Below, in pieces: positions 37,913-60,794 of a stretch of DNA of 64,000 nucleotides. The translations under genes and the position numbers were made by a program. Position 1 is the first letter of the stretch; each line of letters opens with the position of its first letter. The stretch lies in IMG/VR virus record IMGVR_UViG_3300036945_000814, positions 1 through 64,000 of that record; one strand, written 5' to 3'. Below the pieces are notes generated by a model. The model did no database searches, was not told the DNA's origin, and worked only from the letters and a program-made list of their open reading frames with translations. Origin of the DNA: a virus.

Positions 37913-39600
37913 GCGCCCCCGTCGACCTCGAAGCGATGTCACCGGCCGACGCCAACGCCGTCGAGCTGGCGATGCAGCGCGCGAGCGTTGCCTACTTCGC
38001 TTCCCGCAACCTCTCGGGTCCGCCGGAGGCGCCCTACAACGGGCGTTTCATCGTCGGCGACCACCACCTTGAATGGGATGAGCTTGCGACTTCGGATCGC
38101 GTCTGCGTGCTTGCCCCGCGCGATCACGGCAAGTCGTTTTTCTGGAACAAGGCTTTCCCGATCTGGAAAGCAGCCTTCGGACTGCCGGGGCAGATCGGCT
38201 ACATTTTCTCGGTCAATCAGGACAAAGCCAACGAAATGCTCCAGATTCTCGTCGAGGAGCTGACAGGCAATCCGCGGCTCGCGTGGCTCACCCCCGTCGA
38301 TTGGGAACGACGGTGGAGCAAGCGCCGCATCCGCCTCACCACCGGCGTCGAGATCCGTGCAAGAGGCTTCGGCGTCAAGGTCCGCGGCGGCCATCCACAT
38401 TGGATCGTCAACGACGACATCCTGAGCGACGAGAACATTTACAGCGAGACGATCCGCAACAAGGCGATCGACTACTACCTGTCCGCCATCACGAACATGG
38501 TCGTGCCCGGCGGCCAGATCGCGACCATCGGCACGCCGATGCACCAAGCCGACCTCTACGCGCACCTCCGCGACAGCGGCCGATACAAAATGTGGGAGAA
38601 GCCCGCGCTCGATCGCGTGACGGGCAAGGCGCTGTGGCCCGCCCGCTACAACGAGGCCCTGCTCGCCGACCGCAAGCAGGAGATCGGCTCCGTCCGGTTC
38701 ACGCGCGAGTTCCTTGTGCGGCCCATGTCCGACGACATGAGCTTGTTCCCGTCGTACCTCTTCGACGGCGAGCCCTTCCGCCAGCGCAACGTGAAGATGG
38801 GGATGCCCCTCGGGTTCTGGCAGGCCCTTGGGATCCGCTGCTACATCGGCGTCGACATCGCACTGAGCGCCGAGACGGGCGCCGACTATCTCGTGATCTT
38901 CGTCCTCGGGATCGACGGCGACGGCAACCGCTGGGTCGTGGACATCCACCGCGACAAGGGCGTGCCCTACGCCCGGCAGCTCGACCTCATCGTCGAATAC
39001 AGCCGCCGCTACGACGCCGCCCTCGTGTTCGTCGAGGCCAACCAAGCGCAGCGCGTGTGGGGCGACGAGCTGATCCGCACGACCGACATCCCGATCAAGA
39101 AGTTCACCACGATCGGCAAGGGCGTCGGCGCCGGCAAAACGATGTCGCAGACCGCGAACAAGAACGACCTCGCCAAAGGCGTGCCGTCGTTGCGTCCGCT
39201 GCTCGAAAACAAGAAGTGGCGATGCCCGCAAGGCGACACGCAGTCCGTCGAGAAGGCGCGTATCTGGATCGGCGAAATGAACGCCTTTTCTTGGATCAAC
39301 GGCAAGGTGCAGGGCGTCGGCTCCCACGACGACACCGTCATGGCAGCATGGATCGCAGAGCAGGCCGTGCGCCGCGGCGGGTTCTCGGCGAGCTTCGGAG
39401 ACGGTGAGGGGGAGATCGATCCCCGTGCGCTGGCGAAGCACGCCGAGCGCATCGCCGCTCTTGCCGAGGGCCGCGGGCCAGCGGACAATGGGGCCGCGGC
39501 TTCCGTCAATCCAAGCGGGAGCAGCGGCAACCTCGGCGCGTCTGATATGACTTCGGATCAACAGCTTTGGGCCGCGGTCCCGTTCTACCAGCAAGGGTGA
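37909..39600 (+). CDS. terL: terminase large subunit
   Basis: APRDHGKS Walker A, VRGGHP..IVNDDI, IGTP, LWP, nuclease GVDIA, VEAN, HDDTVMA. Confidence 0.95.
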   Translation: MSAPVDLEAMSPADANAVELAMQRASVAYFASRNLSGPPEAPYNGRFIVGDHHLEWDELATSDRVCVLAPRDHGKSFFWNKAFPIWKAAFGLPGQIGYIFSVNQDKANEMLQILVEELTGNPRLAWLTPVDWERRWSKRRIRLTTGVEIRARGFGVKVRGGHPHWIVNDDILSDENIYSETIRNKAIDYYLSAITNMVVPGGQIATIGTPMHQADLYAHLRDSGRYKMWEKPALDRVTGKALWPARYNEALLADRKQEIGSVRFTREFLVRPMSDDMSLFPSYLFDGEPFRQRNVKMGMPLGFWQALGIRCYIGVDIALSAETGADYLVIFVLGIDGDGNRWVVDIHRDKGVPYARQLDLIVEYSRRYDAALVFVEANQAQRVWGDELIRTTDIPIKKFTTIGKGVGAGKTMSQTANKNDLAKGVPSLRPLLENKKWRCPQGDTQSVEKARIWIGEMNAFSWINGKVQGVGSHDDTVMAAWIAEQAVRRGGFSASFGDGEGEIDPRALAKHAERIAALAEGRGPADNGAAASVNPSGSSGNLGASDMTSDQQLWAAVPFYQQG

Positions 39601-39604
39601 CTCC

Positions 39605-42600
39605 ATGAGCCTGATCCTCGACCTCAAGAAAAGCGCCGCCATCCTGAACGCAGGCGGCGAGGGGCAAGAGAAGCGGTGGACGCGCTATCCGGGCGCCGCC
39701 AGCATGTTCAACGCCCGCGACGCCGAGCACCGCGAGACGCAGCGGCTCATGACGCAGATGCCCACGCCGAAGCTCGCCATCAGCGACGGCAACTTCACGA
39801 GCCCCGACGACGTGGTGAAGGGCCTCGGCTTTGGCGCCACCGACGAGACGTTGTGGGCGCACCGCGTGGCCCGCATGGTCGCCCGCGCGCCGAGCGAAAT
39901 GGCGCTGCGCAAGGCTGTCGTCGGCGACCTCCGCGGCGAGGCCCTTGAGCCCCCGCTGCGCGCCGAGCTTGGCCGCCGCATCCTCTCGCTGTACCGGCAG
40001 AGCGCCGGCGGCAAGCCGCTTGAGAAGGGCTTTCCGCCGAAGAAGGGCGCTCCGCCCGCCGGCGGCCGCCCGCCCATGATGGGCGCCCCCGACGAAGACG
40101 AGGGCAACAGCGCCGGCGGCGACGGCGCCGCCGGTCCCGCCCCGATGCCGAAGCCCGCGATGAAGCCGGGCGGCCCGATGGGCAAGCCCGCCTCTCTCGG
40201 CGGCAAGCCCGGCGAGGCCCCCGGCGGCGTCGGCCGCAACCCCGCCGTCGACGCCGCGGAGCTGACCGAGCTGCCCGACGACAAGAGCCTGTTGCAGAAC
40301 AAGATCCATGCGCTGCACGAAGACCTCAAGAGCTGCCAAGGCCCGATCACCGGCAACGCCGCGCTGATCCACATGCACAACGACATCAAGGCGCAGATGC
40401 GCGCCGCCTACCGCGATCCGAACCCCGAGATCGTGAGCGACATCGATCACAAGATCCATCACTTCAAGAAGATGCTCGAAGGCCCGCCCCCGCCCGAGGT
40501 CGACCCCAACGACCCCAACGCGCAGGGCGACCCCGGCGCCGGTGGCTACGGCGACCGTGGCGGCCCGCCCAAGCCCGGAGCGATGGCCGGATCCCCGCCC
40601 TCCGGCCGGCAGCCCGGCAAGCGCCCTCCGCCGCCGCCCATGATGGGCAAGAGCGAGCGCGCCAAGGGCGCCCGAAAAGGAGGGCCACCCCGCCCTTTTG
40701 ACCTTGGCCGCCGCGCGATTGCCGCGGCGGCCTTCGACGACTTCTGCAAGGGCGCCGGACACAAGTACCTGCGGCGCCTGCCGACGGGGAAGGCGAAGCC
40801 GCGCTATCGCTACATCTACAACGCCGCCAAGGCCGTCGACACCAAGGCGCGCCCGAGCGTCGGCGAGAAGATCAAGGTCGATCACAACGGACAGGCCGGT
40901 CACTACGAGGTGAAGCGCGTCATGCGCTCCGGGCAGGTCGAGATCCATCACGACGAGACGGGTCACCGCATGGTGATCCACCGATCCAAGCTGCACGACC
41001 TCGTGCGCGACGTCCACGCACCCGCCAAGCTCGACCGCCAGCTCGAAAACCAACGCCTCGACGAAGCGCACCGCAAGGTCGACATGCTTCCCCGATCCAA
41101 GCAGGGCGTGCTCGACAGTATCAAGGCCGCGAGCGGCATCGACGACCACGACCTCGCACAAGCCGACGCGGCCTACGCCGCGTGGAAGGGCCGCGGCCGC
41201 AAAGGCCCGAAGCCGACGCGCGCTGGCAAGGGCGGCGAGCTTGACTCGTTCTCCGGCGACCTCAAGCGCGGCAAGCACTACTCGTCGCTGCTCGAAGCGT
41301 TCGAGGTCGCCACCAAGGGCGCAAAGACGTGGCGCGACATCGCGCCCGTGATCCAACAGCTCCGCGAGGTGCCGGGATTCGAGAACGCGCACCTTCCCGA
41401 AGACGCCTTGCTGCGGCACGCGATGCAGGACCGGGAGCGCGAAGACGCCCCCGACACGCGCCGCGTGGACCCCGAGACGTATGGATCGACGCTGTCGAAC
41501 ACCGTCGATGACGGCGGCTTTGACTGGACGAGCGGCGAGCAGCACCCGGCCCTGTCCACGCCCTCGCAGCTCAAGGCGGCGAAGAAGCGCGCCGCAGCAG
41601 CGAAGAAGGCCGGCAAGGCCGCCGAGCCCGTCGCCCCGCCGCGCGAGGCCCCCGCCGTCGCCGACGACGAGCCCTACACGCCGTCGGACCCCGACGCCCC
41701 CGGCGCGGACAGTGGCGAGCCCGAGCCCGCCGGCGATGTTTCTTTCGACTTCGGCGCCAGCGCGCCCGACGAGCCCGATGAGTGGGGAACCGATATGTGG
41801 CGATCCGACGTGAACCTTGTCCTCGATCTGCGCAAGGCCGCGGACATTTTCGACGGCGTCTCCAAAGAGGAAGCGCGTGGCCTCGCCCGTGCGCTCAACG
41901 TCGACATGGGGAAGATCGATCTCGCACAGTGGAAGCGGGGCATCGCGCATGAGCGCGAGCACTCCGACCTCACCCGCGACCCCGTCAAGATCGCGCGCAT
42001 CGCTCTCGCCCACCTCAAAGAAGATCCATCGTACTACGTCAAGCTCGGCAAGATGGAGAAGGCCGACGGCGGCACCGTGACGATGAAGGCCCCCAAGGCG
42101 CCCGCGCCGCCAGCGCCAAAGGCCCCCGCTCCCGCCCCCAAGGCCCCGAGCGCGTCTCCCGCTCCCGCCGCCGCCCCCAAGCCCCCGAGCGCCCCCGCGC
42201 CGTCCGCAGGGGCATCCACGGCCGTCGGCCGGGCACCGAAGCCCCCGAGCGCCAGCGCGCCCCCGCCGCCGTCGGCGAAGCCGACGGCGCCCCCGCCGTC
42301 GAGCGCAGCAGCTCCGACCAAGGCCGGCCCGGCCCCGAGCGAGCCCGCGCACGCCAAGTTCCAAGAGCTGCAAGCCAAGCACGCCGAGGCCCTGTCGTCG
42401 CTCCAAAGCGCGCACGCCGCCATGACCGCGCACGCCGAGAAGCACGGCATCGCCATGCCCTCGTCGAGCGCGCCGCCGACGACGTCGAACGCACCGACGG
42501 CGATCTCGGGCAGCGGCCCGCGCGTCGACCACAGCGTCGCCCGCGGTCCAAGCTCGGCAGCGCCCGCCGCCCCGGCGGCGCACGATGACGACGTGTTCGC

Positions 42601-45600
42601 CCCCATCGGTTCCGGCGGAGGTGCCACCGGCGTCGCCCGCAAGACGCCCGCCCCCGGCAAGCCTGCCGCTGGCAGCGACGGCAGCGAGTTCAAGCACCTT
42701 TCCGGCCCCGTCTCCGGCGAGACGCCCGAGGAGTCGGTGCCCAAGGCCGACGGCATCCTCGCCCACGGCGTCGTCGGTCACACGTCGAGCGGCAAGCAGG
42801 TGTCGCTCGGCATGAACACCGACAAGCTCACGCCGCAGGAGGCGCACGAGGCGTCGTTGCTGCACCGTGACGCGCAGGAGCACTTGCTCAACGCGGCACG
42901 GCACACGGGCAACGCCGAGTACAAGACCGCCGCGCGTGCGCACCTCGACGCCGAGTTTTCGCACGCATCGAGCAGCGTGAGCGCGACCGCTCAAGCCACC
43001 GATCCGACTGAGCAGAAGCCGTGGGCCGGTCCCGGCGGAGGCGGGCCGGGCGCGCGCACCGCGGACGAGCACAAGCAGCAGGCGGCGGCCACGGACGCTG
43101 TCGCCGACAAGCACGAGGCGGCCGGAAACACCAAGCTGGCGACGGTGTACCGCACCGCCGCTGACGCATCACGCAAGGCAGCGGCCTCGGCCCCGGCGAA
43201 GCCCGGCGCGGCGCCTGCGGCGCACGATGACGACGTGTTCGCACCGATGGGATCGGCCACGAAGTCTCTGTCGGCGGTGTGGGATCGGTTGTCCGCGTGG
43301 CACCCGTCGCCCATGTGGGCGGGCGAGGACATCGGCATGAGCTTCGGCCACCTTCTGAGCAAGGCGATGGGCGTCGAGCAGGCCGGGCACAAGTACATCA
43401 AGCGCACAGCCAAGGCCGGCGGCGGGTACGACTACGTCTACGCCGACGAGCCCCACAGCAAGGAAACGCTCAAGGGTGCGCCCATCGGGTCGACCTTGAC
43501 GGCGCTGCACAATGGATCGTCGGCGACGTACACGAAGAAGGGCAAGGACGACTGGCACGGCGCCACCGGCGGCCCGATCTCGTCGGGATGGTTCGTGGGC
43601 AAGCCCGGAATGCTCACGCACGGCCCCGCACACCCCGAGCCCGTCCACGCGCCGGCGCCGGCGCCCGTCGCAGCTCCGCCGGCACCGAAGCCCACGGCCT
43701 CGAAGCCTGCCGGCAAGCCCGTGCAGGGCAGCCTGTTTGACATGCTGACGGCGCCCGCCCCGGCGGCCGAGCGCCCCAACAACTTCGAGACGATGCCCGA
43801 CAAGCCGGCGGCGTCACCGATGGCGGAGGCCGTGAAGGAAGCCGAGAAGCAGCCGGCGACGTTCGAGGTGCAGGCCGCTGCGGCCATCGACGACGCGAAC
43901 GCCGCCGACGACCGCGGCGACGAGGCCGCCCACCGCGAAGCAAGCAAGCGCCTCGCCGAGATCCGATCTGCGGCCGCCGAGGCCGAAAAGCCCGCAGCGC
44001 CCGAGCGCGACCGCCCCAACAACTTCGTCACCATGCCGGATCCCGAGCCCGGCGAGGCCAAGCCGAAGGCGCCGTCGGCCGCCGAGAAGACGAAGCGCGA
44101 GAAGTTCGAGGAAGCCAAGGCCAAGGCCGGCGCAGCCTCACCGATGGCCGAAGCGACGAAGGAAGCCACCAAGCAGCCCGCCGACGTGAGCGGCGCGTGG
44201 AAGCTCACCTACGACGCGGAGGCGGAAGACGCGGAAGAGGCCAAGATCAGCGAGCGCCACGCGAAGTTTCTGGAGGACAAGAAGAAGGCCCTCGCCGTCG
44301 CCGAACGCGCTCAAAAGAGCGCGCAGCACAGCATCGACTACGACAAAGAGCACTTCAAGATGAAGCGCGACGGCGTGCCGTGGGCCGCGAAGCCGACGCA
44401 GCTCAAGTCGCTGCAACTGCGCACCGCAGAGCTGGCGCACGCCAAGATGGATCTTGAGTACTCCACGCAGCGTTTTGCAGGCGCCGCCAAAGAGCGAGCG
44501 GAGCAGCGCGCCACCCGCAAGGCCGCCGCGGAGCGCCATGTGCGTGAAGCCCCGGAGCGCACGAAGGTCGCAGCCGCGGCCCGCGAGCGCATCGCCGCCG
44601 AAGAGGCACGCCAGAAGGCGGCCCGGCTCGTGATGACCGAGTCGACGAAGACCTCCCGCCAGCGCGAGCGCGAGACGGGTGAGCACATCGCCGCTTCGGC
44701 AAAGGACCGCTCAGACGAACGTCGCATGATCACGACGGGCGACCTTGGATCGATGACGTTCTCCGACGCGCACCGTCTCGTGAACAAGCGGAACGCGATG
44801 CCGGTCTACGGCGCCGACGAGTTCCAAGCCAAGGGCGCGAGCCCCGGCGCGGCCCACATGGGCCTCGCGCTGGCGAACCTCATCGCGCCGTCGCCGCCCG
44901 AGGACAGTGACGACGCCCGCCGCCGGTACCTTGAGGGCATCCGCCTCGTGCATGGCGTGCTGGACAGCGCGAACACCGTCGCCGACTACGCCGAGGCGCG
45001 CAAAGAGCTTGCGGCCATGCACAGCGGCGACAACGTCCCGAAGACGGAGATCCATTCAGCCGTCAAAAAGACGGCTGACGAAAAGGCGGCTGACGTCAGA
45101 AAATACCAAGCGGACTACCGCGCTTGGCAGTCCTCCCACAGCGGCACTCGCCCCGAGTCGCCGCAGGACTATCACGGCATCACCACCTACCCCGGAAACT
45201 ACATCCGCGAGGTGTTGACGCCCCGTGTGAAGGCGCAAGATCCAGACCTTGAGGTCGGCTACGAGTACGTCGATTCTGGCGGCGCCGGTGAGCGTCTGTC
45301 GTTCTTCACCTATTCCAAGTCGAGGAAAGAGGCGATGCGCAAGACCATCGACGCCCTCGGCAAGAGGTTCGTCGATCATGTGGTCGGCGACGGGAAGGTC
45401 TGGAACGACGCGAAGGCCAAGGCGCAGGAAGCCGAAGACATGGGCCTTGCCGGGTGGGATCACCTCGACAAGACCGACGAGGAAAAGGCACGAGCGCGGG
45501 AAGCCACCAAAGCCGAGAAGGCGAAGCTGGCGGAGAACGAGAGTGGCAGCGGCAAGGAAACCAAGCTCCGCTGGCGCCGGTCGATCTCGAAAAAGCCCGC

Positions 45601-46618
45601 CGTGATCGGCGCCAAGGTCACGATCACAGACTCGGACCCCGAGCGGTTCCGCAAGACCTTCAACTTCCGTGGCGAGCAGCCCGGCGAGGCCATCCCCGAC
45701 GCCGAGCTGAATCACCACCGCAAGTACGCCGAAATGGCGTTCCACGACCTCGCCGACGTGCTCGGCATCGAGCCCCGGCAGGTGTCGATGAACGGTCGGC
45801 TCGCGATGGCGTTTGCCGCGCGCGGCAAGGGCGGAGCGATGGCCCACTATGAGCCGGCGGAAAAGGTCATCAACGTCACCCGGTTCGCAGGTGCCGGTAC
45901 CGTCGCCCACGAGTGGGGGCACTTCATGGACAACATCGTCGCCGAGCTGCACCGAGGTGGGTCCACCAAGAGCGCCGTGTACGCATCCGCGGGTGAGGGC
46001 GAGGGGATGCCGGCGGAGCTTGCCGCGGCCTACGCGAAGTTCAACGCCGCGCTGAAAGAGCCGAACCCCAAGACGATCGAACGCTTGAAGAAGGATCACG
46101 CCGACCTCGACAAAGAGTACGAGGACACGCGGAAAATGCTGAGAGAACACCCCGCGAACACGAGGGCCGACAAGACACCCGAGCAGCGCAAGGCCGACGT
46201 GGACAGCTACAACGTGATCGTCAAGAACCTTGGGCACATTTCCACGCAGCAAAAGCTCATCCAAAACTTCCTGCGCAACCCGACGTCGGACTACATGCAC
46301 GACGCCATCGGCCGCGACGGCGGAAGGCGCGGCAAGTATTGGTCGAACCCGCAGGAGCTTTTCGCCCGCGCCTTTGAGAGTCATGTGCAGCACAAGCTCG
46401 AAAGCCAAGGCCGGCGCAACAGCTACCTCGTCGACGGCGCTGTCGGCCCCGGCAGCCCCTACCCGCAGGACGATGAGCTGTCGAAGATCCACGGCGCGAT
46501 CGGTGGCATCATCACGGCCATTCACGGCGCCAAGCTCTTCGAGAAGGCCCTCAAGGCGCTATCGTCTGTCCCGCTGACGGCGCGGCGGCGCGGCCCCAAG
46601 CTCGTGATCGCCGCTTAG
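39605..46618 (+). CDS. giant polyvalent protein (2337 aa) with DUF5661-like module and C-terminal LPD1 (HExxH) domain
   Basis: GIAHEREH...IALAHLKEDPSYY (about 41840-42055); AFHDLADVL...LAMAFAARG...AHYEP...AHEWGHFMD...YWSNPQELFARAFE (about 45640-46480). Confidence 0.8.
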   Translation: MSLILDLKKSAAILNAGGEGQEKRWTRYPGAASMFNARDAEHRETQRLMTQMPTPKLAISDGNFTSPDDVVKGLGFGATDETLWAHRVARMVARAPSEMALRKAVVGDLRGEALEPPLRAELGRRILSLYRQSAGGKPLEKGFPPKKGAPPAGGRPPMMGAPDEDEGNSAGGDGAAGPAPMPKPAMKPGGPMGKPASLGGKPGEAPGGVGRNPAVDAAELTELPDDKSLLQNKIHALHEDLKSCQGPITGNAALIHMHNDIKAQMRAAYRDPNPEIVSDIDHKIHHFKKMLEGPPPPEVDPNDPNAQGDPGAGGYGDRGGPPKPGAMAGSPPSGRQPGKRPPPPPMMGKSERAKGARKGGPPRPFDLGRRAIAAAAFDDFCKGAGHKYLRRLPTGKAKPRYRYIYNAAKAVDTKARPSVGEKIKVDHNGQAGHYEVKRVMRSGQVEIHHDETGHRMVIHRSKLHDLVRDVHAPAKLDRQLENQRLDEAHRKVDMLPRSKQGVLDSIKAASGIDDHDLAQADAAYAAWKGRGRKGPKPTRAGKGGELDSFSGDLKRGKHYSSLLEAFEVATKGAKTWRDIAPVIQQLREVPGFENAHLPEDALLRHAMQDREREDAPDTRRVDPETYGSTLSNTVDDGGFDWTSGEQHPALSTPSQLKAAKKRAAAAKKAGKAAEPVAPPREAPAVADDEPYTPSDPDAPGADSGEPEPAGDVSFDFGASAPDEPDEWGTDMWRSDVNLVLDLRKAADIFDGVSKEEARGLARALNVDMGKIDLAQWKRGIAHEREHSDLTRDPVKIARIALAHLKEDPSYYVKLGKMEKADGGTVTMKAPKAPAPPAPKAPAPAPKAPSASPAPAAAPKPPSAPAPSAGASTAVGRAPKPPSASAPPPPSAKPTAPPPSSAAAPTKAGPAPSEPAHAKFQELQAKHAEALSSLQSAHAAMTAHAEKHGIAMPSSSAPPTTSNAPTAISGSGPRVDHSVARGPSSAAPAAPAAHDDDVFAPIGSGGGATGVARKTPAPGKPAAGSDGSEFKHLSGPVSGETPEESVPKADGILAHGVVGHTSSGKQVSLGMNTDKLTPQEAHEASLLHRDAQEHLLNAARHTGNAEYKTAARAHLDAEFSHASSSVSATAQATDPTEQKPWAGPGGGGPGARTADEHKQQAAATDAVADKHEAAGNTKLATVYRTAADASRKAAASAPAKPGAAPAAHDDDVFAPMGSATKSLSAVWDRLSAWHPSPMWAGEDIGMSFGHLLSKAMGVEQAGHKYIKRTAKAGGGYDYVYADEPHSKETLKGAPIGSTLTALHNGSSATYTKKGKDDWHGATGGPISSGWFVGKPGMLTHGPAHPEPVHAPAPAPVAAPPAPKPTASKPAGKPVQGSLFDMLTAPAPAAERPNNFETMPDKPAASPMAEAVKEAEKQPATFEVQAAAAIDDANAADDRGDEAAHREASKRLAEIRSAAAEAEKPAAPERDRPNNFVTMPDPEPGEAKPKAPSAAEKTKREKFEEAKAKAGAASPMAEATKEATKQPADVSGAWKLTYDAEAEDAEEAKISERHAKFLEDKKKALAVAERAQKSAQHSIDYDKEHFKMKRDGVPWAAKPTQLKSLQLRTAELAHAKMDLEYSTQRFAGAAKERAEQRATRKAAAERHVREAPERTKVAAAARERIAAEEARQKAARLVMTESTKTSRQRERETGEHIAASAKDRSDERRMITTGDLGSMTFSDAHRLVNKRNAMPVYGADEFQAKGASPGAAHMGLALANLIAPSPPEDSDDARRRYLEGIRLVHGVLDSANTVADYAEARKELAAMHSGDNVPKTEIHSAVKKTADEKAADVRKYQADYRAWQSSHSGTRPESPQDYHGITTYPGNYIREVLTPRVKAQDPDLEVGYEYVDSGGAGERLSFFTYSKSRKEAMRKTIDALGKRFVDHVVGDGKVWNDAKAKAQEAEDMGLAGWDHLDKTDEEKARAREATKAEKAKLAENESGSGKETKLRWRRSISKKPAVIGAKVTITDSDPERFRKTFNFRGEQPGEAIPDAELNHHRKYAEMAFHDLADVLGIEPRQVSMNGRLAMAFAARGKGGAMAHYEPAEKVINVTRFAGAGTVAHEWGHFMDNIVAELHRGGSTKSAVYASAGEGEGMPAELAAAYAKFNAALKEPNPKTIERLKKDHADLDKEYEDTRKMLREHPANTRADKTPEQRKADVDSYNVIVKNLGHISTQQKLIQNFLRNPTSDYMHDAIGRDGGRRGKYWSNPQELFARAFESHVQHKLESQGRRNSYLVDGAVGPGSPYPQDDELSKIHGAIGGIITAIHGAKLFEKALKALSSVPLTARRRGPKLVIAA

Positions 46619-46620
46619 GC

Positions 46621-46657
46621 GTCTCACGGTTGACACTACGAATGGAGCGCCTACAAT
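46621..46657 (+). promoter_or_regulatory. sigma70-type promoter GTCTCA-nnn-TTGACA-N16-TACAAT
   Basis: Near-consensus; shares the GTCTCA element and 16-bp spacer with the early cassettes. Confidence 0.75.
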
Positions 46658-46664
46658 GGTTCGC

Positions 46665-49600
46665 ATGACCACACACGACACCATCGAAGACGCTTCCTTC
46701 GGTTTGCTGCTCAAGGCCGACATCGACGACGCCCTCGACGATCTCGAAAAGGCTTTCGGGTCGGAGCGGGCCGGCCACAAGTACAGCTCCCGCCGACGCA
46801 ACGCGAAAGGCGAGTGGGAGTACGAGTACGCCACCGACAAGACGAAGGCGCACGCGCAAATGGCGTTCACCTTCGCCGCGGCGCACGGCACCCCCGAGCA
46901 GCAGGATCGCGCCCTCGACGTGCTCAAGCGCGTCGAGCCGGACAGGTGGCCCGACCACGTCCACGCGGCCAACGTCGCGCACGAGGCCGCGGTCATCCAC
47001 GCGGCGAACGTCGCCCACGAAGCGGCCGCCCGACCCCTGCCACCATCGCCAGCGCACGAGCACAGCCCCCCGGCCGCCGCCGCGCCCCCTGCCGTCGTGA
47101 GGTTCACGCAGGGCGAGCCCAAGCCCGCCGTCGCCGCGGCCCGTGCGCTGGATGCCTCCCGTGCGAGCCTGATCCGCGCTGGCATCGGCCTGCGCGCCAA
47201 CGCAGAAGAGAAGACCCCTATCGAGGCCGTGGCCGGCCGCGCGGCCGCGCTTCGCAGCTCCGCCTCGTCGCTTTTCAATGAGTCGATCCGCATGGGCATC
47301 GTGAACGACGACCCGCGCACCGCGCGGAAGTTCACGGCCGAGGAACATCGGGCGCTGGCCGCCGCGCACACCGCCCTCTTCGACGAGTTCCGCGAGCTGT
47401 ACGCGCGCTCGATGACGATGCGCATTCGCCCGCCCTCCGGCATGACCGCCGCCGACGCCGATGCGCTCCGCTCCCAGCTCGAACGCGACTTCAAGGGGCA
47501 CGCCAAGCTCGCTCAAGCCCACAACGACGCCGCCAACGCGGCGTCGGGCAAGCCCGCACCCGCGGCCGCTGTGCCGCTCGTGGTCGCGCCTGTGGCGACT
47601 TCGGTCGCTCCGGCGCTGGACGCCGGCCCGGTGCAGCTCATGGACGCCGCCGCCCGCCTCATCGCCGAGCGTGCGAGCGGCGCGCCGCCGGCGTTCAAGG
47701 CCGTCGACAACAACCGCGTCACCATCGGTGGCGTCAAGATGATCGTGCAGGGTGGCTTCCTCGGCGACGCTCCCGCGCACCGCGCGTGGGCGGAGACGGC
47801 CGGCACGTTCTCGGCCGACGCGCAGCACTTCGACGGCGGCCGGGCCTACCGCGTCGCCACCGAGGCGGAGCGTGTGGCCGCCGTGGCGATGATCCCGCGT
47901 CTCCGCGGCTCCGTGAACGTCAACGCGCCCGCACCGGCCCCTGCCCCGGCGCCCGTCGTCGCCGAGCCCGTGCGCCCCGTCGACGACTTCACCGGCGCGT
48001 TCAGGGCGCTGAGTGACGGCAGCGGCGCCGAAGAGATCGTGACGCTCCCGTCGGGATCCAAGATCGGGCTGTCCTACGTCAGCGGACAGGCCAAGGCGCG
48101 CCCCGTCGGAGGCGGCATCGGCCGCAAATGGGATGCGACCGCGACGAAGCGCGCCCTCGCCGCCTTCGAGGCCAAGGTCGCCGCCCTCGGCCCCGCGTGG
48201 CACGCCGCCCACAACGCCATGTACGGCGTCGCCGCCGCCCCGACGCCGCTCGTGGTGGCGCCCGTGGAGACGGCCGCGCCGAAGCGCAAGCGCGCCAACA
48301 ACTTCGAGACGATGCCCGACGGCGACAGGCCCAACAACTTCGACACGATGCCCGAGGAGATCAAAGACCCGTCGCCGCGCGCCACAAAGATCCGAGAAAA
48401 CCGCGAAGCTCGCGAAGCCGAAGCCGCGTTGGAAGCCGGAGCCGAGCGACTGACGGGCGAAGAACGCCACGCCGCCCTGACCCGCATGGGCCAACACTTG
48501 CACGAGGTGCAGGACTTCCGGGCCGGCAAAGACGACACGGGCATGAGCGGCGCCGACATGCTGACGTGGCGCCGATCGACCACCGCACCCCGCAAGGCCA
48601 GCGTCCTCCGCAAGTACCGCCGCCAGCTCGTCGAGAGTTTCGGCGACCTCTACTTCAAGGCCGGGCTGCACGAGAAGGAGCCGATCCCCAAGGGGCACGT
48701 TCCTGCCGTCGGCGAATGGACCGAGCGCGGCGGGCTCGTCATCAAGGCCGACGGCTACCTCGGGACGAAGTTCAACGCATGGAAGAACCTGCTCAAAGAG
48801 CACGGCTTTCGCTGGAATGGATCACGCGGCGACGAAAGCGCCGACGGGATGCACGCAGAGAAGGCGGCGCTGCTCGACATCCCCGGCTTCATCGAGGCGG
48901 CGAACAAGATCGGGATCCATGTCGAGATCCCCGAGAAGCCCGAGGTCGCCCTCGATGCGCCAGCGGCGGCCAACGAGCCCGAGGCGCCCCTGCCCACGCC
49001 CGAGCGGCCGTCGGCGGATCGCCCGACGACCACCGAGGACACGCAGCGGGTCATCAACGCCATTCGCGCCAAGCAGGGCCAGCGCGGCACCGTCGCCGTC
49101 ACCGTGAAGCCCGACGGCAAGTTTGCTTTCTACGCCGTCGACTACCGCAAGACCGAGGTGCCCGGCTCGTTCAACCACATCATGTCGAACAAGAACGGGC
49201 AGATCACCGGGCTCATGGAGGTCGACTCCAAGGACGCTTTCTCGCGCACCACCTACGACGCCGCCCTCGTGACCGAGGCGCTTGGCAAGCTCCGCGACGC
49301 CAACCCGACCTTCCATTTCTACATCGACCCGAAGGCCGCCGCCGCCATCGACAAGGCCGGCGCCGACAAGGCCGCAGCCGAGAAGCCGATCCCAGAAGTC
49401 GAGGCCCTGCTTGCCGACGGCTTCGCGCTCAAGCCCTACCAGAACGCGATGGTGCGGTTCCTCGACAGCAACGACGGCAACGCCATCGTCGGCGACGAAA
49501 TGGGCCTTGGCAAGACGCTGCAATCGCTCGCGTGGGTGGCGAAGAACAACAAGAAGGCCATCGTCGTCGTCCCCAAGGTCGTGCGCCGCACTTGGATCGA

Positions 49601-50987
49601 AGAGGCGCACAAGTTTTTCCCCGGACACTTCAACGCGAAAGAGCTGCGATCCAAGGATCTGCTCACGAAGAAGAAGGCCAAGGCCGGCAAGGCCGACGCC
49701 GGCGGCCTCTCGTTCATCGACGAGCTGATGGCAACCGACAGCCCGATGGATCTCACGGGCAAGAACCTCGTGACGGTCAACTACGAGTCGCTTGAGAAGT
49801 TCATGCCCTACCTCAAGGCCGCCGGGTTCGACACGATCATCGTCGACGAATCGCACCGCGCGAAGAACCCGAAGGCGAAGACGACGCAGGTGATCCAAGC
49901 CATCGCGAAGACGATGAAGCATCGCATCCTCATGTCCGGCACCGCGGTCAAGAACGGCAAGGATGAGCTTTTCACGCAGCTCGAAATGGTGAAGCCCGGC
50001 CTGTGGGGCTCGGCGAAGGAGATCAAGTTTTCCACGCATGGCGCTGCGTGGAACAAGATGCGGGACCACTACCTCGCGCGATCCAAGAAGAACGTGCTCA
50101 AGGATCTCCCCGAGAAGACGACCACGATCAGCCTGCTCTACGCCCCCGGCGCGCCGGACATCGGCAAGATGAAAGAGCCGACGCCGCCACCGGCGAACGC
50201 CACCGCGAAGCAGATTGCGGCCTACGAAAAGGCCGCCGAAGAGTGGGAATCGTGGATGGAAGGGGCCGCCGACGGCGACGGCATCAACGAGGACATCGGC
50301 GATCTCATGGACGGCGGGTCGTCGATCGGCGAGTACAGCCGCGTCCGCGGCCAGCTCGCGCTGGCGAAGGTCGACGGCACCGTCGACATGGTGCAGGAGA
50401 TCCTTGATAGCTCCGACAGCAAGGTGCTCGTGTTCACCGAGTCGGTTGCCGCGGCGAAAGCCATCGCCGAAAAGCTCGGCAGCGAGGCGATCCTGCACTA
50501 CGGGCAGCAGAGCGACGACAAGCGCGAAGACGCGAAGAAGGAGTTTCAGCGCGAGGGATCCCCCAAGCGCGTGTTCGTCTCGACCCGCCCGTCGCTGGCC
50601 GTCGGCGCCACGCTCACGGCCGCCGACAAGGTCGTGTTCAACGACCTCCCGTGGACGGCCGCCGACGTGCGCCAAGCCGAGGACCGCGCGCACCGCGTGG
50701 GCCAGAAGAACGCCGTCAACGTCTACTGGAACGTCGCCGAGGACAACAAGTTCGACGAGAACGTCTCCGCCATCCTCCGCCGGAAGTACGACCTCTCGAA
50801 GAAGATCAACGAGGGGCAGCAGCTTTCGCCCGAAGAAAAGGCGTGGATGAGCAAGCCCGTCACCATGCGCGAAGTCATGGATCGCATCAAGGGCAAGCCC
50901 TCCGGCCCGCCCGAGCCCAAGATCGAAAAGAGCGCCAAGGCGCAGCTCCGCGACATGACCCGCGCGCTGATCAAAGCGGCAAGCTAG
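46665..50987 (+). CDS. large protein with C-terminal SNF2/SWI2 helicase-ATPase
   Basis: LKPYQ, GDEMGLGKT, NYE, DESH, MSGT, QAEDRAHRVGQ; ATG 46665 preferred because ATG 46656 overlaps the -10. Confidence 0.9.
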   Translation: MTTHDTIEDASFGLLLKADIDDALDDLEKAFGSERAGHKYSSRRRNAKGEWEYEYATDKTKAHAQMAFTFAAAHGTPEQQDRALDVLKRVEPDRWPDHVHAANVAHEAAVIHAANVAHEAAARPLPPSPAHEHSPPAAAAPPAVVRFTQGEPKPAVAAARALDASRASLIRAGIGLRANAEEKTPIEAVAGRAAALRSSASSLFNESIRMGIVNDDPRTARKFTAEEHRALAAAHTALFDEFRELYARSMTMRIRPPSGMTAADADALRSQLERDFKGHAKLAQAHNDAANAASGKPAPAAAVPLVVAPVATSVAPALDAGPVQLMDAAARLIAERASGAPPAFKAVDNNRVTIGGVKMIVQGGFLGDAPAHRAWAETAGTFSADAQHFDGGRAYRVATEAERVAAVAMIPRLRGSVNVNAPAPAPAPAPVVAEPVRPVDDFTGAFRALSDGSGAEEIVTLPSGSKIGLSYVSGQAKARPVGGGIGRKWDATATKRALAAFEAKVAALGPAWHAAHNAMYGVAAAPTPLVVAPVETAAPKRKRANNFETMPDGDRPNNFDTMPEEIKDPSPRATKIRENREAREAEAALEAGAERLTGEERHAALTRMGQHLHEVQDFRAGKDDTGMSGADMLTWRRSTTAPRKASVLRKYRRQLVESFGDLYFKAGLHEKEPIPKGHVPAVGEWTERGGLVIKADGYLGTKFNAWKNLLKEHGFRWNGSRGDESADGMHAEKAALLDIPGFIEAANKIGIHVEIPEKPEVALDAPAAANEPEAPLPTPERPSADRPTTTEDTQRVINAIRAKQGQRGTVAVTVKPDGKFAFYAVDYRKTEVPGSFNHIMSNKNGQITGLMEVDSKDAFSRTTYDAALVTEALGKLRDANPTFHFYIDPKAAAAIDKAGADKAAAEKPIPEVEALLADGFALKPYQNAMVRFLDSNDGNAIVGDEMGLGKTLQSLAWVAKNNKKAIVVVPKVVRRTWIEEAHKFFPGHFNAKELRSKDLLTKKKAKAGKADAGGLSFIDELMATDSPMDLTGKNLVTVNYESLEKFMPYLKAAGFDTIIVDESHRAKNPKAKTTQVIQAIAKTMKHRILMSGTAVKNGKDELFTQLEMVKPGLWGSAKEIKFSTHGAAWNKMRDHYLARSKKNVLKDLPEKTTTISLLYAPGAPDIGKMKEPTPPPANATAKQIAAYEKAAEEWESWMEGAADGDGINEDIGDLMDGGSSIGEYSRVRGQLALAKVDGTVDMVQEILDSSDSKVLVFTESVAAAKAIAEKLGSEAILHYGQQSDDKREDAKKEFQREGSPKRVFVSTRPSLAVGATLTAADKVVFNDLPWTAADVRQAEDRAHRVGQKNAVNVYWNVAEDNKFDENVSAILRRKYDLSKKINEGQQLSPEEKAWMSKPVTMREVMDRIKGKPSGPPEPKIEKSAKAQLRDMTRALIKAAS

Positions 50988-51017
50988 AGTAGATCCGTTC
51001 ACCCCCGAGGACCGCCC

Positions 51018-53276
51018 ATGAGCACCAACGAAGCCACCGCCCTCTTGAACGACTCGCCGCTGCTCAAGTCGGACGACGGCCACAAGTACGTCAAGCGTGA
51101 GGGGATGCCCGGCGCCTACAAGTACACCTACGCCGACGGCAGCACCGGCCACACCGAGCACAAGCCCACGTTTCAGCTCGGCGCCGCGGCGCATCAACAG
51201 GGCCTCTTCGGCGCCAGCTCCTACGAGAAGAAGCCGGCGAAGCCGAAGGCCCCCGATCCCTTGGCGCACCGGCAGGTCGATATGTTCGCGCCGAAGCCGG
51301 CAGCCGCCACAGCGCCCGCGCCCGCGCCCGCGCCCGAGCCCGCGTCGAAGTTTGACGAGGTCGTTTCAGCCGCCTACACGCAGCGCGCCCGCGAGGCCGG
51401 CGCTGCCTCGGCCCATGCTCGCGAAATGGATCAAGCCGGCTACCACGGAGGCATCAGCAACGCCCACAGGCACGCCGCTTCCGCGCATCGTCGAGCCGGC
51501 GAGGCCGCCATCGCCCTTGGTCACGGCGCCAACACCGCCATGCACGGCAAGCAGATGGCGCACCACGAGAAGCAGGCGGATCTCGACGACGACATCGCCG
51601 CACGCCACGCCGCAACGCGCAGCGGTGCCGCAAAGGAGGCTTCCGACCGCGTCATGGCTATCGCCGACAAGGCGAAGAAGACGACGATGGTCGACACGCC
51701 CGCGGGGCCGCGTGAGTCCACGCCGGGCGGGCTCAAATGGTACGGCGACAAGCCCCACAACCCGGAGGCGCTGGCCGCGGCGCGTGAGGCTTACGGCAGC
51801 GCCAAGTCCGAAGGCCGCAGCGACAAGCTGGCCCACAGCAAGGCGTCGAAGGCCGCGCAGAAGCACCTCGGCGGCGTCACCGGCGCGTGGGATCACGCGA
51901 CGCACGCTCAAGAGCTGCACGATCACGCGAACGGGAACCGGCACGAGATCCCCGGCGGCGCCGACCGCGCAGGGCCACCGCCCCGTGCGCCCGCGAAGAA
52001 GAAGTCCCCGAAGGCGCAGGCCACGCACGCGGCCAAGGTCGCCGACGCCGCTTCGGCGAAAGAAAACGCCGCCGATCACGCGCACGACATGGGATCCAAG
52101 GCGACCACCCTTTCCACGGCCGCCCACCGCCTTTCCAACGCCGGCGGCGACATGGGAAGCGCGAACCACCAAGCCGCGCACGAGGCGCACAAGGCCGCCG
52201 CCGCTGCCAACCGCGAGGCCGCCTCGGCGTTCCAGCAGCCGGGCGCCAGCGTGAGCATTGCAGGCAAGTCGTTCTCGTCGCTGCACGAGGAGCGCGCGAA
52301 GGCGCACGACGAGAAGGCCGGCGATCACTGGCGCGAGGCGGTCAAGGCGCGCTCCGACGAAGAGGGTGAGCCATTCAGCCAAGCCGCGACGCACAAGGTC
52401 GACGGCACGAAGAAGACGGATCTCGACAAGCTGCACGAAGGTGTGGCGGACCTCAAGCCATCCGCCATGCGCAGCGACGGGCACTTCACGCGGGCTGCCG
52501 ACAAGTTCAAGGCGCTGCGCGACCACATCCACGAGAAGGTCGGCGCCCATCCCGCGCACGCGCACGCGAGCAAGGCGTTCACCCTCGCCAACACCGCGGC
52601 GCAGTCGTCCGGCAGCTACGACGTCAAGACGCGCCGCGAGCACATGGAAGGCGCGCAGCAGCACGCGCAGAAAGCGATCGACGCGATGAAGGGCATGGGC
52701 AAGAGCATGGATCACGAGGTCGGAATCTCCCGCTTCCAAGACCGCTCCGCCGGCCGTCCCGCCGCCGGCGGCGTGTACGACGGGCTCGGCTCCGGCATGG
52801 TCGATCCCACCGTGGATCGCCCGCGCTACGCCGGCCGCGCCCCCAATCAGGTGATCGCCGTCGGCGTCGCTGGCGACAGCAACGACCGCAACACCTTCGC
52901 CTACCAGAAGGGCCGGCAGTCCGGCGCCACGTTGGATCTGGCGAAGTCGGCGATGATCGGCGCCGTCAAGGACGGCTACCGGATGCAGCTCATCGCCGTC
53001 GCCGACGCCAACCCCGTTGCCTCGCTCATCATGCGCGGCCGCGTGGAAGGCGAGCGCCCGATGGTGCCCGCCGAGCTGCGCAAGAGTGTGCAGCTTTCCG
53101 CGCCCGACCCCGACGCCGTCGTCGCCTTCGCCGCGGCTGCCCTCAAGGCTGCCAGCGACCGCAACCCGCAGCTTCGGGAAGGGCTCTCGCGCCTCGGCGT
53201 CTCCCGTGCCACCCTGTACGCGACCCTTGAGGCGCTGGCCCTCACACCGGCAGGGATGACCGCCGGCAACCGATAG
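51018..53276 (+). CDS. His/Ala-rich helical protein, probably virion-internal
   Basis: HxxAAxAH-type repeats; GHKY motif at the N-terminus; directly upstream of the portal. Confidence 0.7.
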   Translation: MSTNEATALLNDSPLLKSDDGHKYVKREGMPGAYKYTYADGSTGHTEHKPTFQLGAAAHQQGLFGASSYEKKPAKPKAPDPLAHRQVDMFAPKPAAATAPAPAPAPEPASKFDEVVSAAYTQRAREAGAASAHAREMDQAGYHGGISNAHRHAASAHRRAGEAAIALGHGANTAMHGKQMAHHEKQADLDDDIAARHAATRSGAAKEASDRVMAIADKAKKTTMVDTPAGPRESTPGGLKWYGDKPHNPEALAAAREAYGSAKSEGRSDKLAHSKASKAAQKHLGGVTGAWDHATHAQELHDHANGNRHEIPGGADRAGPPPRAPAKKKSPKAQATHAAKVADAASAKENAADHAHDMGSKATTLSTAAHRLSNAGGDMGSANHQAAHEAHKAAAAANREAASAFQQPGASVSIAGKSFSSLHEERAKAHDEKAGDHWREAVKARSDEEGEPFSQAATHKVDGTKKTDLDKLHEGVADLKPSAMRSDGHFTRAADKFKALRDHIHEKVGAHPAHAHASKAFTLANTAAQSSGSYDVKTRREHMEGAQQHAQKAIDAMKGMGKSMDHEVGISRFQDRSAGRPAAGGVYDGLGSGMVDPTVDRPRYAGRAPNQVIAVGVAGDSNDRNTFAYQKGRQSGATLDLAKSAMIGAVKDGYRMQLIAVADANPVASLIMRGRVEGERPMVPAELRKSVQLSAPDPDAVVAFAAAALKAASDRNPQLREGLSRLGVSRATLYATLEALALTPAGMTAGNR

Positions 53277-53284
53277 GAGCCCGC

Positions 53285-55045
53285 GTGGACCTCATCAAGC
53301 CCGAGCAGATCCGCGCCATGATGGCGACGGCCATCGAGTCAAAGCTCTCGCAGGCCGTGCATGACGCGACCGGCGAGGCCATCGAGCGGCTTGTCGAGGC
53401 GCAGATCCAAGATCAGCTCGCCCCGATGATGGGCGGGCTGCTCGCCAAGGGCAACGGCGGCGACCCCGGCCCGCGCCCCGGCCAGCTCTCGCAGACGACG
53501 GCCGCCGACCCCAAGGGCCTGCTCTACGATCCGTTCACGGCCCTCGACCAGATGGGCTTTCGCGAGCGCCCGAGCGCCATCACGTTCCGCACGCTCGGCG
53601 AAATGGCCCGGCGGGTGCCGCCGTTCTCGGCGTACCTGCAAACGCGGTTGAACCAGATGGCCGCCTTCTGCGAGCCGCAACCCGACGAGCACAGCGTCGG
53701 GTTCAAGTTTGTCCTCAAGGACAAGCAGGCGAACCTGTCGAAGAAGATGCAGCGCCGCAACGACGAGCTGACCCGGTGGCTCTCGGCGATGGGCGACCCC
53801 GAGCTGAACATCAAGCGCGACAAGTTTGGCGCGTGGATGCGCAAAAGCATGTGGGATTCCCTCGTCTACGATCAGATGACGACGGAGATCGTGCCCCGCA
53901 AAGATGGATCGGCGCCGTCGTACATCCGCGCGCTCGACGCCGCCACGATCCGTGTTTCCGACACGCTCGACGAGGTCGACTACATCGACGAGACGATCCA
54001 ATACGTTCAGATTTACGACGACACGATCATCGCGGAGTTCAAGGAACACGAAATGATCTTCGGGATCCGAAACCCGCGCAGCGACATTCGCTACAGCGGC
54101 TACGGAATGCCCGAGCTGGAAATGCTGATCAGCATCGTCACCGCGCTCCTTTGGGGCATCGACTACAATGCCAAGTTTTTCTCGCAGGGCTCGGTCGCGA
54201 AGGGCCTGCTCAACTTCAAGGGCGCCATCCCCGAGAAGGAGCTGATCGCGTTCCGCCGTCAGTGGTACTCGATGATCACCGGCGTGCAGAACGCTTGGCG
54301 CACTCCCGTCGTCAACGCGGAAGACGTGCAATGGCTCAACATGCAGTCGAGCAACCGCGACATGGAGTTTGCGGCTTGGATCGACTGGCTGCTCAAGGTG
54401 ACGTGCGCCGTCTGCCAGATCGCCCCCGAAGAGATCGGGTTTCAGTTTGGCAACGCGGGCCAGACCTCGACGATGTCGGAGGGCTCGCAGGCCGACAAGC
54501 TGGCGCAGAGCAGGGACAAGGGCCTCATCCCTCTCGCCAAGTTTGTCTGCGAACAGCTCAACGACAAGGTGATCGACAAGCTCGACAACCGCTTCCGGTT
54601 GGAGTTTGCCGGCGTGAACGCACGCACCGCCGAGGCGTTGATCGACTTGCAGACCAAAGAGGTCAAGACCGTCAAGACCGTCGACGAGGTCCGCAAAGAG
54701 CGCGGCGAAGATCCATTGCCCGACGGGCTCGGCGCCGTCATCCTCGACTCGGTGTGGTTGCAGTTCATGCAGGCGAAGAACGCCGAGAAGCAGCAACAGC
54801 AGCAGGCCGGAGGCGGCGACGGCTACGGCGCCCCGCCCGGCTCCCCGCAGATGGACGGCGCGCCCCCGTGGGAAGGCGACGGCACCGATCAGCAGGAGCA
54901 ACCGGACGATGCCGGCCAAGGCGGCGACGTTGACGCGGGAGGCGCACCGCCCGACGATGTGCAGAAGAGCGGACGCAGCGGCTTCGGCCTTTCGCCGGCC
55001 CAACAGCGCGCGCTCCGCACGTTGGATCTTGAGGTCGATCTGTGA
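53285..55045 (+). CDS. portal protein (SPO1/Twort-like)
   Basis: RNPRSD..GYGMPELE, YNAKFFSQG, FRRQW...NAW.TPV, DMEF..W, PEEIGF, DEVR..RG..P. Confidence 0.92.
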   Translation: MDLIKPEQIRAMMATAIESKLSQAVHDATGEAIERLVEAQIQDQLAPMMGGLLAKGNGGDPGPRPGQLSQTTAADPKGLLYDPFTALDQMGFRERPSAITFRTLGEMARRVPPFSAYLQTRLNQMAAFCEPQPDEHSVGFKFVLKDKQANLSKKMQRRNDELTRWLSAMGDPELNIKRDKFGAWMRKSMWDSLVYDQMTTEIVPRKDGSAPSYIRALDAATIRVSDTLDEVDYIDETIQYVQIYDDTIIAEFKEHEMIFGIRNPRSDIRYSGYGMPELEMLISIVTALLWGIDYNAKFFSQGSVAKGLLNFKGAIPEKELIAFRRQWYSMITGVQNAWRTPVVNAEDVQWLNMQSSNRDMEFAAWIDWLLKVTCAVCQIAPEEIGFQFGNAGQTSTMSEGSQADKLAQSRDKGLIPLAKFVCEQLNDKVIDKLDNRFRLEFAGVNARTAEALIDLQTKEVKTVKTVDEVRKERGEDPLPDGLGAVILDSVWLQFMQAKNAEKQQQQQAGGGDGYGAPPGSPQMDGAPPWEGDGTDQQEQPDDAGQGGDVDAGGAPPDDVQKSGRSGFGLSPAQQRALRTLDLEVDL

Positions 55046-59951: not shown

Positions 59952-60794
59952 TTGCAGGAATCAGACGCTCCGGCATTCAACTTCGACTTCGACATCGAAG
60001 TGTTCGAGAAGGCCGGCGTCGCTCCTGAGAAGGCGCGCCGCATCGGCGGCTTCGTGTCCACGAGCGCCCTCGACAAGCAGGGCGAGCGCGTCTTGCAGGA
60101 AGGGCTCGACTTTTCCCCGTTCCTGCAAGACGGGTGGTTCAACGACAACCACAGCAAGGCCACCGCCGACATCGTCGGCTTCCCCGAGACGGCCAAGCTC
60201 ATCCGCAAGGGCGAGCGCCTGCCGAGCGGCACGTCGGCCGACAAGACCGGATGGTTCGTCGAGGGCTACCTCCTGCAAGGGCACCCGCCGAGCGACCGTA
60301 TCTGGGAGCTGGCGAAGGCGTTGCAGAAGACGCCGCGGCGTCTCGGGTTCTCCGTCGAGGGCCGCGTCACGCAGCGGATGAACAAGGCCGGCGAGCCCAT
60401 CGTCGCCCGCGCCGTCGTCAAAAACGTCGCGGTCACCAACTGCCCCGTCAACAATCAGACGTCGCTCGAAGTGCTCGCCAAGAGCCTGAGCGCCATCGAA
60501 ATGAGCAAGGCGCTTGAGGTCGGGCCGCCGCCCGGTCCCGCGAGCGACCCCGGCTCCATCCCCGCCGGCGTGCCCCTGTCGGGCATGGGCGCGGGCCGCG
60601 TGCTCATGCCTGAGTCGATCGGCGGCTACGCCGGCGCCTTCGGCAACCCCAACGGTGCGCAGCCCCGGAAGAAGAAGAAGAAGAAGCTCACCAAGAGCGC
60701 CGCGTTGGATCTCATTCACAGCCGCTATCCGGGCATCACCAACCACACGGCGGCGCGGATCTTCCGCTTCGCTGTCGCACACGCCTCTCACTGA
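59952..60794 (+). CDS. prohead protease (SPO1/Twort-like)
   Basis: GFVST..LDKQGE...GLDFS...FNDNH, LGFSVEG, VAVTNCPVN; AGGAG SD before a TTG start. Confidence 0.9.
   Translation: MQESDAPAFNFDFDIEVFEKAGVAPEKARRIGGFVSTSALDKQGERVLQEGLDFSPFLQDGWFNDNHSKATADIVGFPETAKLIRKGERLPSGTSADKTGWFVEGYLLQGHPPSDRIWELAKALQKTPRRLGFSVEGRVTQRMNKAGEPIVARAVVKNVAVTNCPVNNQTSLEVLAKSLSAIEMSKALEVGPPPGPASDPGSIPAGVPLSGMGAGRVLMPESIGGYAGAFGNPNGAQPRKKKKKKLTKSAALDLIHSRYPGITNHTAARIFRFAVAHASH

Follow-up and report, generated by a model that had tools for sequence, protein, structure and literature searches.

A recurrent basic hairpin behind an LxK[A/G/S] site as a putative header of packaged cargo in giant phage head-cluster proteins

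The first 64 kb (hereafter the window) of the 107,025-bp IMG/VR virus record IMGVR_UViG_3300036945_000814 (CheckV 100% complete, GC content 67.7%) encode three giant proteins, the products of open reading frames ORF1, ORF2 and ORF3, in which the peptide pattern HKYxxR...YxYxY recurs behind a short lysine-containing motif. This element, which we call HKY, is a real and widespread module that has no Pfam or NCBIfam name. With moderate confidence we read it as the cut-site-plus-handle header of capsid-packaged cargo, in which the prohead protease would cut after the Lys and the released pieces would keep the hairpin near their new N-terminus.

An original prediction, made from the letters of the window, had proposed four copies of the peptide in three giant proteins, each within a few residues of a K[ASG] motif and each heading otherwise unrelated sequence. 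All three statements hold. A six-frame regular-expression scan finds exactly four copies in the window, all on the + strand, all in frame and at the predicted places (around residues 385 and 1261 of ORF1, 40 of ORF2 and 21 of ORF3), and profile searches of the whole genome recover these same four modules and none besides. A [LIMFV]xK[ASG] tetrapeptide stands ahead of every copy (FCKG, LSKA, LEKA and LLKS). The segments downstream of the four hairpins are mutually unrelated, sharing nothing but the hairpin itself, and the flanks are unrelated too. The three ORFs are adjacent and lie between the terminase and portal genes:

39605..46618, + strand: ORF1, a polyvalent, putative cargo protein of 2337 aa that carries HKY twice, along with DUF5661 (aa 758-819) and LPD1 (aa 2238-2306)
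40700..40831, + strand: HKY module 1, with a leader helix, FCKG site (40742-40753), Gly turn and hairpin (H at 40760)
43328..43453, + strand: HKY module 2, with LSKA site (43355-43366), 8-residue linker and hairpin
46656..50987, + strand: ORF2, 1443 aa, with an HKY module at the N-terminus and an SNF2-family helicase at aa 886-1389
46716..46841, + strand: HKY module 3, with LEKA site (46743-46754), linker and hairpin
51018..53276, + strand: ORF3, 752 aa, without a match to known families; its HKY module lies at aa ~15-40
51021..51143, + strand: HKY module 4, with LLKS site (51060-51071) and hairpin; the leader is similar to the N-terminal end of this phage's scaffold

The likeness in the last of these is close: the ORF3 leader and site (51018-51080, ..PLLKSDDG) hardly differ from the scaffold's first site (60815-60880, ..PLFKSDDG), a likeness that could reflect mimicry of the scaffold or no more than an extended specificity of the protease.

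The module extends far beyond this phage. When 5.8 billion proteins were searched with the four copies, the matches were large proteins with one to three copies each, N-terminal or internal, and a degenerate DNA pattern retrieved at least 113 loci in IMG/VR, where 78 ORFs carry 81 distinct modules. A 40-position profile built from these 81 modules (A3) was searched against 1.84 billion representative proteins and matched 1,326 clusters at E<=1e-3, of which 140 reach E<=1e-10, the matching proteins carrying one to five copies each and ranging from 88 to 3135 aa in length. The original prediction had named such a profile search as its check, with support to come from matches confined to head-module proteins, located after xK[AS] and with variable cargo. 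Largely in agreement with this, almost all matches are large phage proteins of head-gene clusters, xK[A/G/S] stands ahead of the module in about 90% of cases and the cargo varies. The carriers come from over 100 viral contigs of widely differing GC content and sequence. All ten clusters that were looked up are metagenomic and are named 'hypothetical protein' at most, and an uncultured-phage UniProt protein, named only as a DdrB-like domain protein, is a match both in structure and in sequence. Among the genome contigs of prokaryotic assemblies, about 7 of 120 pattern matches are true modules, all in metagenome-assembled genomes.

This breadth bears on the trivial explanation, namely that the four copies resemble each other by chance or composition, or through a recent local duplication without function. 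All that speaks for it is that the motif is short. When the residues of ORF1-3 were shuffled 3000 times, the pattern turned up 0.0007 times per shuffle, as compared with four observed copies; the flanks of the four copies are unrelated, and 1,326 clusters on contigs so different in base composition and sequence lie well beyond its reach. We regard this explanation as refuted and give it next to no weight.

Searches of named collections returned little. For the four HKY modules no Pfam family was found at E<=10, NCBIfam gave chance-level matches only, no chain in the PDB contains the module (best sequence match E 0.98) and the ESM Atlas gave only sub-threshold, unnamed viral clusters. A known Pfam LPD domain as the identity of the module was rejected on the lack of a Pfam match, and RHS/YD or MORN repeats were rejected as well, since there is no profile match and the copies are single units hundreds of residues apart. 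In tblastn searches with ORF3, the 67-aa modules and a 130-aa module-plus-barrel query, no real match was found in 50,697 cultured phages or in the PLSDB plasmids, and a related-locus search with ORF3 gave no match. Full-text literature searches turned up no relevant match to HKYIKR-type or IGPRGG-type strings.

In its predicted layout, the header of about 40 residues opens with a short helix whose last residues are L-x-K-[A/G/S]; a Gly-rich linker of 2-10 residues then leads to a basic, tyrosine-rich beta-hairpin of 18 residues, which carries the HKYxxR...YxYxY pattern. Site and hairpin are tightly coupled: [LIMFV]xK[ASG] lies 3-11 residues upstream in some 90% of modules, and LxK[ASG] is found at most 14 residues upstream in 62 of the 81 IMG/VR modules and, among the representative proteins, in 285 of 315, as opposed to 2 of 242 control windows. 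In the site logo, P3 is Leu in 68%, P1 is Lys, P1' is Ala more often than Gly and Gly more often than Ser, and P4-P5 are acidic; from the Lys to the His of the hairpin there are 3-11 residues. Hairpins have a median length of 18 residues, about five of them aromatic, and a net charge that averages +4.0 (at least +2 in 96%; background +0.26). In about half of the proteins the first module falls within 30 residues of the N-terminus, and the LxK[ASG] site is retained even when only 7-15 residues precede it there. The stretch behind the last module has a median length of 430 residues (5th percentile 119), and from one module to the next there are 324 residues.

For the copy-1 subfamily, an AlphaFold2 model from a 31-sequence alignment (A2; mean predicted local distance difference test score, pLDDT, 82) places a helix at residues 9-28 that ends at KGAG and a hairpin at 33-38/46-50 with pLDDT of 80-88. 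Behind the hairpin, a linker of low confidence leads to a barrel of four strands at 67-104 (pLDDT >94), and a long helix closes the model.

Probably LxK[A/G/S] is where the SPO1/HK97-like prohead protease of these phages cuts, given that the motif is enriched in the scaffolds and conserved at the N-terminus of the capsid protein. The scaffold of this phage has 11 LxK[S/A/G] sites where 1.3 are expected, the scaffolds of five relatives have 9-15 (1.3-1.9 expected) and that of SPO1 has 11 (1.4 expected), counts that none of 1000-2000 shuffles reached. The proteases follow suit, with 7 sites here (1.4 expected) and 8 in SPO1 (1.5 expected), and they keep a conserved LAKS directly after the catalytic domain. 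For LxK[S/A/G] the enrichment in scaffolds and proteases amounts to 6-9-fold, SPO1 included; written as [LIMFV]xK[S/A/G], the motif is enriched 5-9-fold in scaffold and protease of the lineage, including the cultured phage SPO1 (L118 1928-3432), and an LNKA at residues ~21-32 of the capsid protein is kept in this phage, its relatives and SPO1. A protease of the family phrog_1028 is encoded on 19 of 25 module-bearing contigs and on 8 of the 9 near-complete ones; of the six contigs that lack it, five were searched, and four of these encode a Peptidase_S78 protease. HK97 gp5 is cut after Lys103 (Lys103|Ser104). A literature search found no measured cleavage specificity for SPO1/Herelleviridae proteases, and the inferred motif therefore rests on these statistics together with the HK97 cut.

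Several points weigh against the cut-site reading of the modules. The original prediction had called the K[ASG] motifs putative cut sites, which the motif statistics of scaffolds, proteases and major capsid protein favour; ORF1-3 taken as wholes, on the other hand, show no enrichment of the motif. At P1', Ser is favoured in the scaffold sites but Ala or Gly in the module sites. LxK[GA] could also be no more than a helix C-cap, and since the AlphaFold2 helix stops there, its conservation may in part be structural, although the variable spacing from Lys to hairpin counts to some degree against a pure helix-cap role. Finally, no cultivated phage carrying the module was found, either by the tblastn searches above or by the HKY profile in SPO1 and the Chryseobacterium phage MA9V-3, neither of which it matches; these two share the head type without the module, so that the module is not required by the protease or the capsid.

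What follows the module is diverse. Behind it we find the classic effectors of polyvalent proteins: ddrB-ParB, SNF2 helicases, LPD1, Zeta toxin, InPase, DUF5661, RelA/SpoT, ART-PolyVal, glutamine deamidase, methylases, SAM lyase, NUDIX and topoisomerase IB. One small carrier, the 426-aa protein P0194, is topoisomerase IB-like (PF01028) and has an N-terminal LLKS leader plus HKY hairpin, an arrangement that suggests a packaged topoisomerase.

This cargo bears on the strongest competitor, in which the module is never cleaved: helix cap and hairpin would form an inter-domain unit, a nucleic-acid-binding mini-domain active in the infected cell, with LxK[GA] purely structural and the hairpin helping the attached effectors (ParB-like, SNF2, methylases, Tudor-like) to engage DNA or RNA. 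The hairpin is indeed basic and aromatic, DNA-acting domains or a Tudor/SH3-like barrel often follow it, and the AlphaFold2 helix stops at KGAG. However, the same module also heads Zeta toxin, glutamine deamidase, InPase, RelA/SpoT and scaffold-like segments, none of them DNA-acting; a spacing of 3-11 residues between Lys and hairpin is unlike a fixed cap; the tetrapeptide is the very motif that is independently enriched in scaffolds and proteases; and it is retained when just 7-15 residues stand before it at an N-terminus. We consider this alternative unlikely, though it is the one to be taken most seriously.

The loci that carry the module are head-gene loci. Within short flanks, homologues of this phage's portal were found in 26 of them, of MuF in 22, of the protease in 15, of the terminase in 12 and of the capsid protein in 10, and the orders terminase-cargo-portal and portal-cargo-MuF recur. 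HKY modules also sit exactly at the junctions of natural fusions, of which there are two types: portal, module, further sequence and MuF in one, and S78 protease, HKY module and an acidic, coiled-coil, scaffold-like tail in the other. Portal-HKY-cargo fusions are seen in P0198, P0201, L012:2179-5025 and L032:2010-4733, the first two of which also end in MuF; the protease fusion is P0203 (= L080:5911-7212).

The company of the protease raises the possibility that site and hairpin form one protease-recognition unit, the hairpin docking on the prohead protease as an exosite so that cargo rides into the procapsid on the inactive enzyme and is freed when it fires; the substrate would then be its own address. 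Site and hairpin are obligatorily coupled, even at extreme N-termini, and the module strongly co-occurs with phrog_1028 or S78 proteases, as this view would expect. The scaffold and capsid sites, however, lack a hairpin, so the protease does not need one, and in the fusion above the hairpin is joined C-terminally to a protease itself; we think this reading improbable, and less plausible than an uncleaved mini-domain. Proximity to the portal gene, in turn, invites the view that HKY is a portal/MuF docking tag, an alternative to the MuF anchor that would bring cargo to the portal vertex, to be ejected first. Module ORFs almost always adjoin the portal gene, several proteins have the module directly after portal domains, and domain annotation finds no MuF domain in ORF1-3. 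Yet such a tag would be redundant where the module is already fused to the portal, and a phage has 3-5 modules whose cargo differs greatly in size. This is the least probable of the three functional alternatives.

We return to the header of packaged cargo as the preferred reading. From their genomic context, the giant proteins would enter the procapsid along with scaffold, portal and protease. There the SPO1/HK97-like prohead protease would cut after the Lys, as the motif statistics indicate, to yield cargo pieces, and the same cut would separate the natural portal|MuF and protease|scaffold fusions. Each released piece would retain the hairpin at or near its new N-terminus, where, to judge from composition only, the +4 aromatic hairpin could act as a common polyanion- or protein-binding handle. 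Such a handle might tether the cargo to the acidic scaffold or to the interior of the capsid at first and, once the scaffold is gone, to the packaged DNA or the region of the portal; the pieces would then remain inside the head until they exit with the genome. As partner of the hairpin we favour polyanions, that is, the hyper-acidic scaffold tract during assembly and the packaged DNA thereafter, a choice that we infer from the charge and aromatic face of the hairpin and from the absence of any other common element in the cargo.

More tentative is the wider proposal that LxK|G/A-HKY is a portable, lineage-wide signal, such that any domain set behind it would be loaded into SPO1-/HK97-like procapsids, freed by the protease and carried into the host on the DNA; we would not bet on it. 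If true, these phages encode a programmable cargo polyprotein, and GP[YF]IGPKGGKW, described below, is a second signal of the same class.

By analogy, HKY comes nearest in function to the capsid-targeting sequence of T4 and to the propeptides of phiKZ/SPN3US, and by its carriers it belongs to the polyvalent proteins. The LxE motif of the T4 protease and the AxE motif of the SPN3US protease recur in propeptides and scaffolds (PMC10052503), and the carriers of the T4 sequence and of the phiKZ/SPN3US propeptides are proteins that are packaged in the head and injected (PMC10052503; Mullaney & Black 1996 cited there). The original prediction had likened the tag to the T4 capsid-targeting sequence. 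The likeness stands insofar as in T4 (internal proteins, Alt) and in phiKZ/SPN3US a short signal is coupled to the prohead-protease motif (PMC10052503). It breaks down in polarity: the T4/SPN3US address lies upstream of the cut and is discarded, whereas the HKY hairpin lies downstream of LxK[ASG] and would remain on the cargo, behind leaders as short as 7-15 residues. Furthermore, unlike the T4/SPN3US signals, HKY recurs internally up to five times in polyproteins, its inferred P1 residue is Lys and not Glu, and there is no sequence similarity.

HK97 offers a comparison closer in protease type. A protease superfamily cutting after Lys and a short peptide directing a passenger into the procapsid would be common to both systems. 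According to Duda and co-workers, the HK97 gp4 protease reportedly has a C-terminal capsid-targeting tail that binds the capsid delta domain; the HK97 tag is thus a C-terminal protease tail, whereas HKY is a repeated N-terminal hairpin on the cargo.

Polyvalent proteins are thought to be an anti-defence "first strike" injected with the phage DNA. Phage polyvalent proteins and LPD modules were described, and processing of such proteins proposed, by Iyer, Burroughs, Anand, de Souza and Aravind (2017, PMC5512222), who proposed zincin-like metallopeptidase domains as the processing enzymes. The HKY carriers resemble these proteins in having LPD1, DUF5661, ddrB-ParB, InPase, ART-PolyVal, SNF2 and MuF/portal fusions beside portal and terminase genes (PMC5512222), and they share the defining traits, namely several unrelated effector or LPD domains within a giant polypeptide and a place among the virion genes of a portal-terminase phage: ORF1 combines DUF5661 with LPD1, ORF2 has SNF2, ORF4 has MuF-like, InPase and ParB-like domains, and relatives carry ddrB-ParB, Zeta toxin, ART-PolyVal and others. 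The main text of PMC5512222 names no HKY hairpin. As with the MuF/SPP1 gp7-anchored effectors and the Dar proteins of P1, the cargo would be head-internal anti-defence cargo delivered with the DNA (PMC5512222; PMC12810830). Those effectors are anchored by a folded MuF domain or by the DarA/Hdf system, whereas HKY has about 40 residues and occurs in proteins without MuF.

If the packaged-cargo reading is true, it gives a testable rule for entry into the head without a MuF anchor and for cutting 2000-residue chains into working pieces, and laboratory work on phages and bacteria could use the HKY header as a tag that brings foreign proteins into phage capsids. The header would also help to annotate over 1,300 protein clusters that lack an annotation, and the scaffold statistics give LxK|S/A/G as an inferred cleavage motif for the SPO1/Herelleviridae-type prohead protease.

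In the window, the head region on the + strand runs in the order amidase, TerL, ORF1, ORF2, ORF3, portal, two small ORFs, ORF4 (MuF), protease, scaffold and major capsid protein. Portal, protease and capsid protein are 31-45% identical to their counterparts in SPO1 and other Herelleviridae. Besides the ORFs given above, the region comprises:

37909..39600, + strand: large terminase, immediately 5' of the putative cargo ORFs
53285..55045, + strand: SPO1-like portal protein, immediately 3' of the putative cargo ORFs
56163..59621, + strand: ORF4, a polyvalent minor head protein of 1152 aa with MuF-like, InPase and ParB-like domains
59952..60794, + strand: SPO1-like prohead (head maturation) protease, phrog_1028, with invariant His67/Ser134/Glu136
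60815..61723, + strand: scaffolding protein whose N-terminal tract is acidic; it has 11 LxK[S/A/G] sites where 1.3 are expected
61786..63225, + strand: SPO1/SU10-like major capsid protein with the conserved LNKA at aa 29-32

The protease at 59952-60794 matches phrog_1028 with E 2.9e-41 and is 35-45% identical to Herelleviridae proteases. A prohead protease homologue on another viral contig (L009:7775-9412, + strand) has an insertion of ~270 residues just ahead of the conserved PVN motif, possibly an intein-like element. In ORF1, LxK[A/G/S] sites tend toward domain borders, their total count being no higher than chance: those at aa 742 and 817 flank DUF5661, and the one at aa 2312 comes after LPD1 (2238-2306).

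Behind the hairpin of module 1 lies a small predicted barrel:

40841..41032, + strand: Tudor/SH3-like beta-barrel after HKY module 1 (ORF1 aa ~413-476), of a subfamily with GAKF...GHF.V...HDETG

This barrel is conserved after HKY in a large subfamily. It matches Tudor/SH3-like folds at a Foldseek E of ~0.01, with the hairpin outside the aligned range, and VIA-align gives Z of 5-6.7, in the range of common arrangements, at a root-mean-square deviation of 1.7-2.7 A over 49-58 residues. The weak structural matches include the RNA-polymerase-binding Tudor domains of CarD and of the UvrD/PcrA C-terminus. The barrel shows no sequence similarity to them and only middling Z, and their function is not implied.

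The original prediction had also listed a second candidate tag, LAKA-GGPYIGPKGGKW, at about 57690. It is present at aa 511-545 of ORF4 and belongs to a real recurrent module:

57648..57815, + strand: second module, ORF4 aa ~496-551, with LAKA site followed by GP[YF]IGP[KR]GGKW..W (GP[YF]IGP[KR]GGKW..P.HT..W)

The LAKA-GGPYIGPKGGKW segment of ORF4 is a single copy in the genome, and Pfam holds no match for the module. The beta-hairpin claimed for the tags holds in the AlphaFold2 model of HKY copy 1; for this second tag the claim finds no support, as AlphaFold2 gives it pLDDT 60 and no secondary structure. We count 19 copies of the second module in the fetched loci and 22 in representative proteins; LxK[A/G/S] usually stands ahead of it, and it often occurs in the same polyvalent proteins as HKY.

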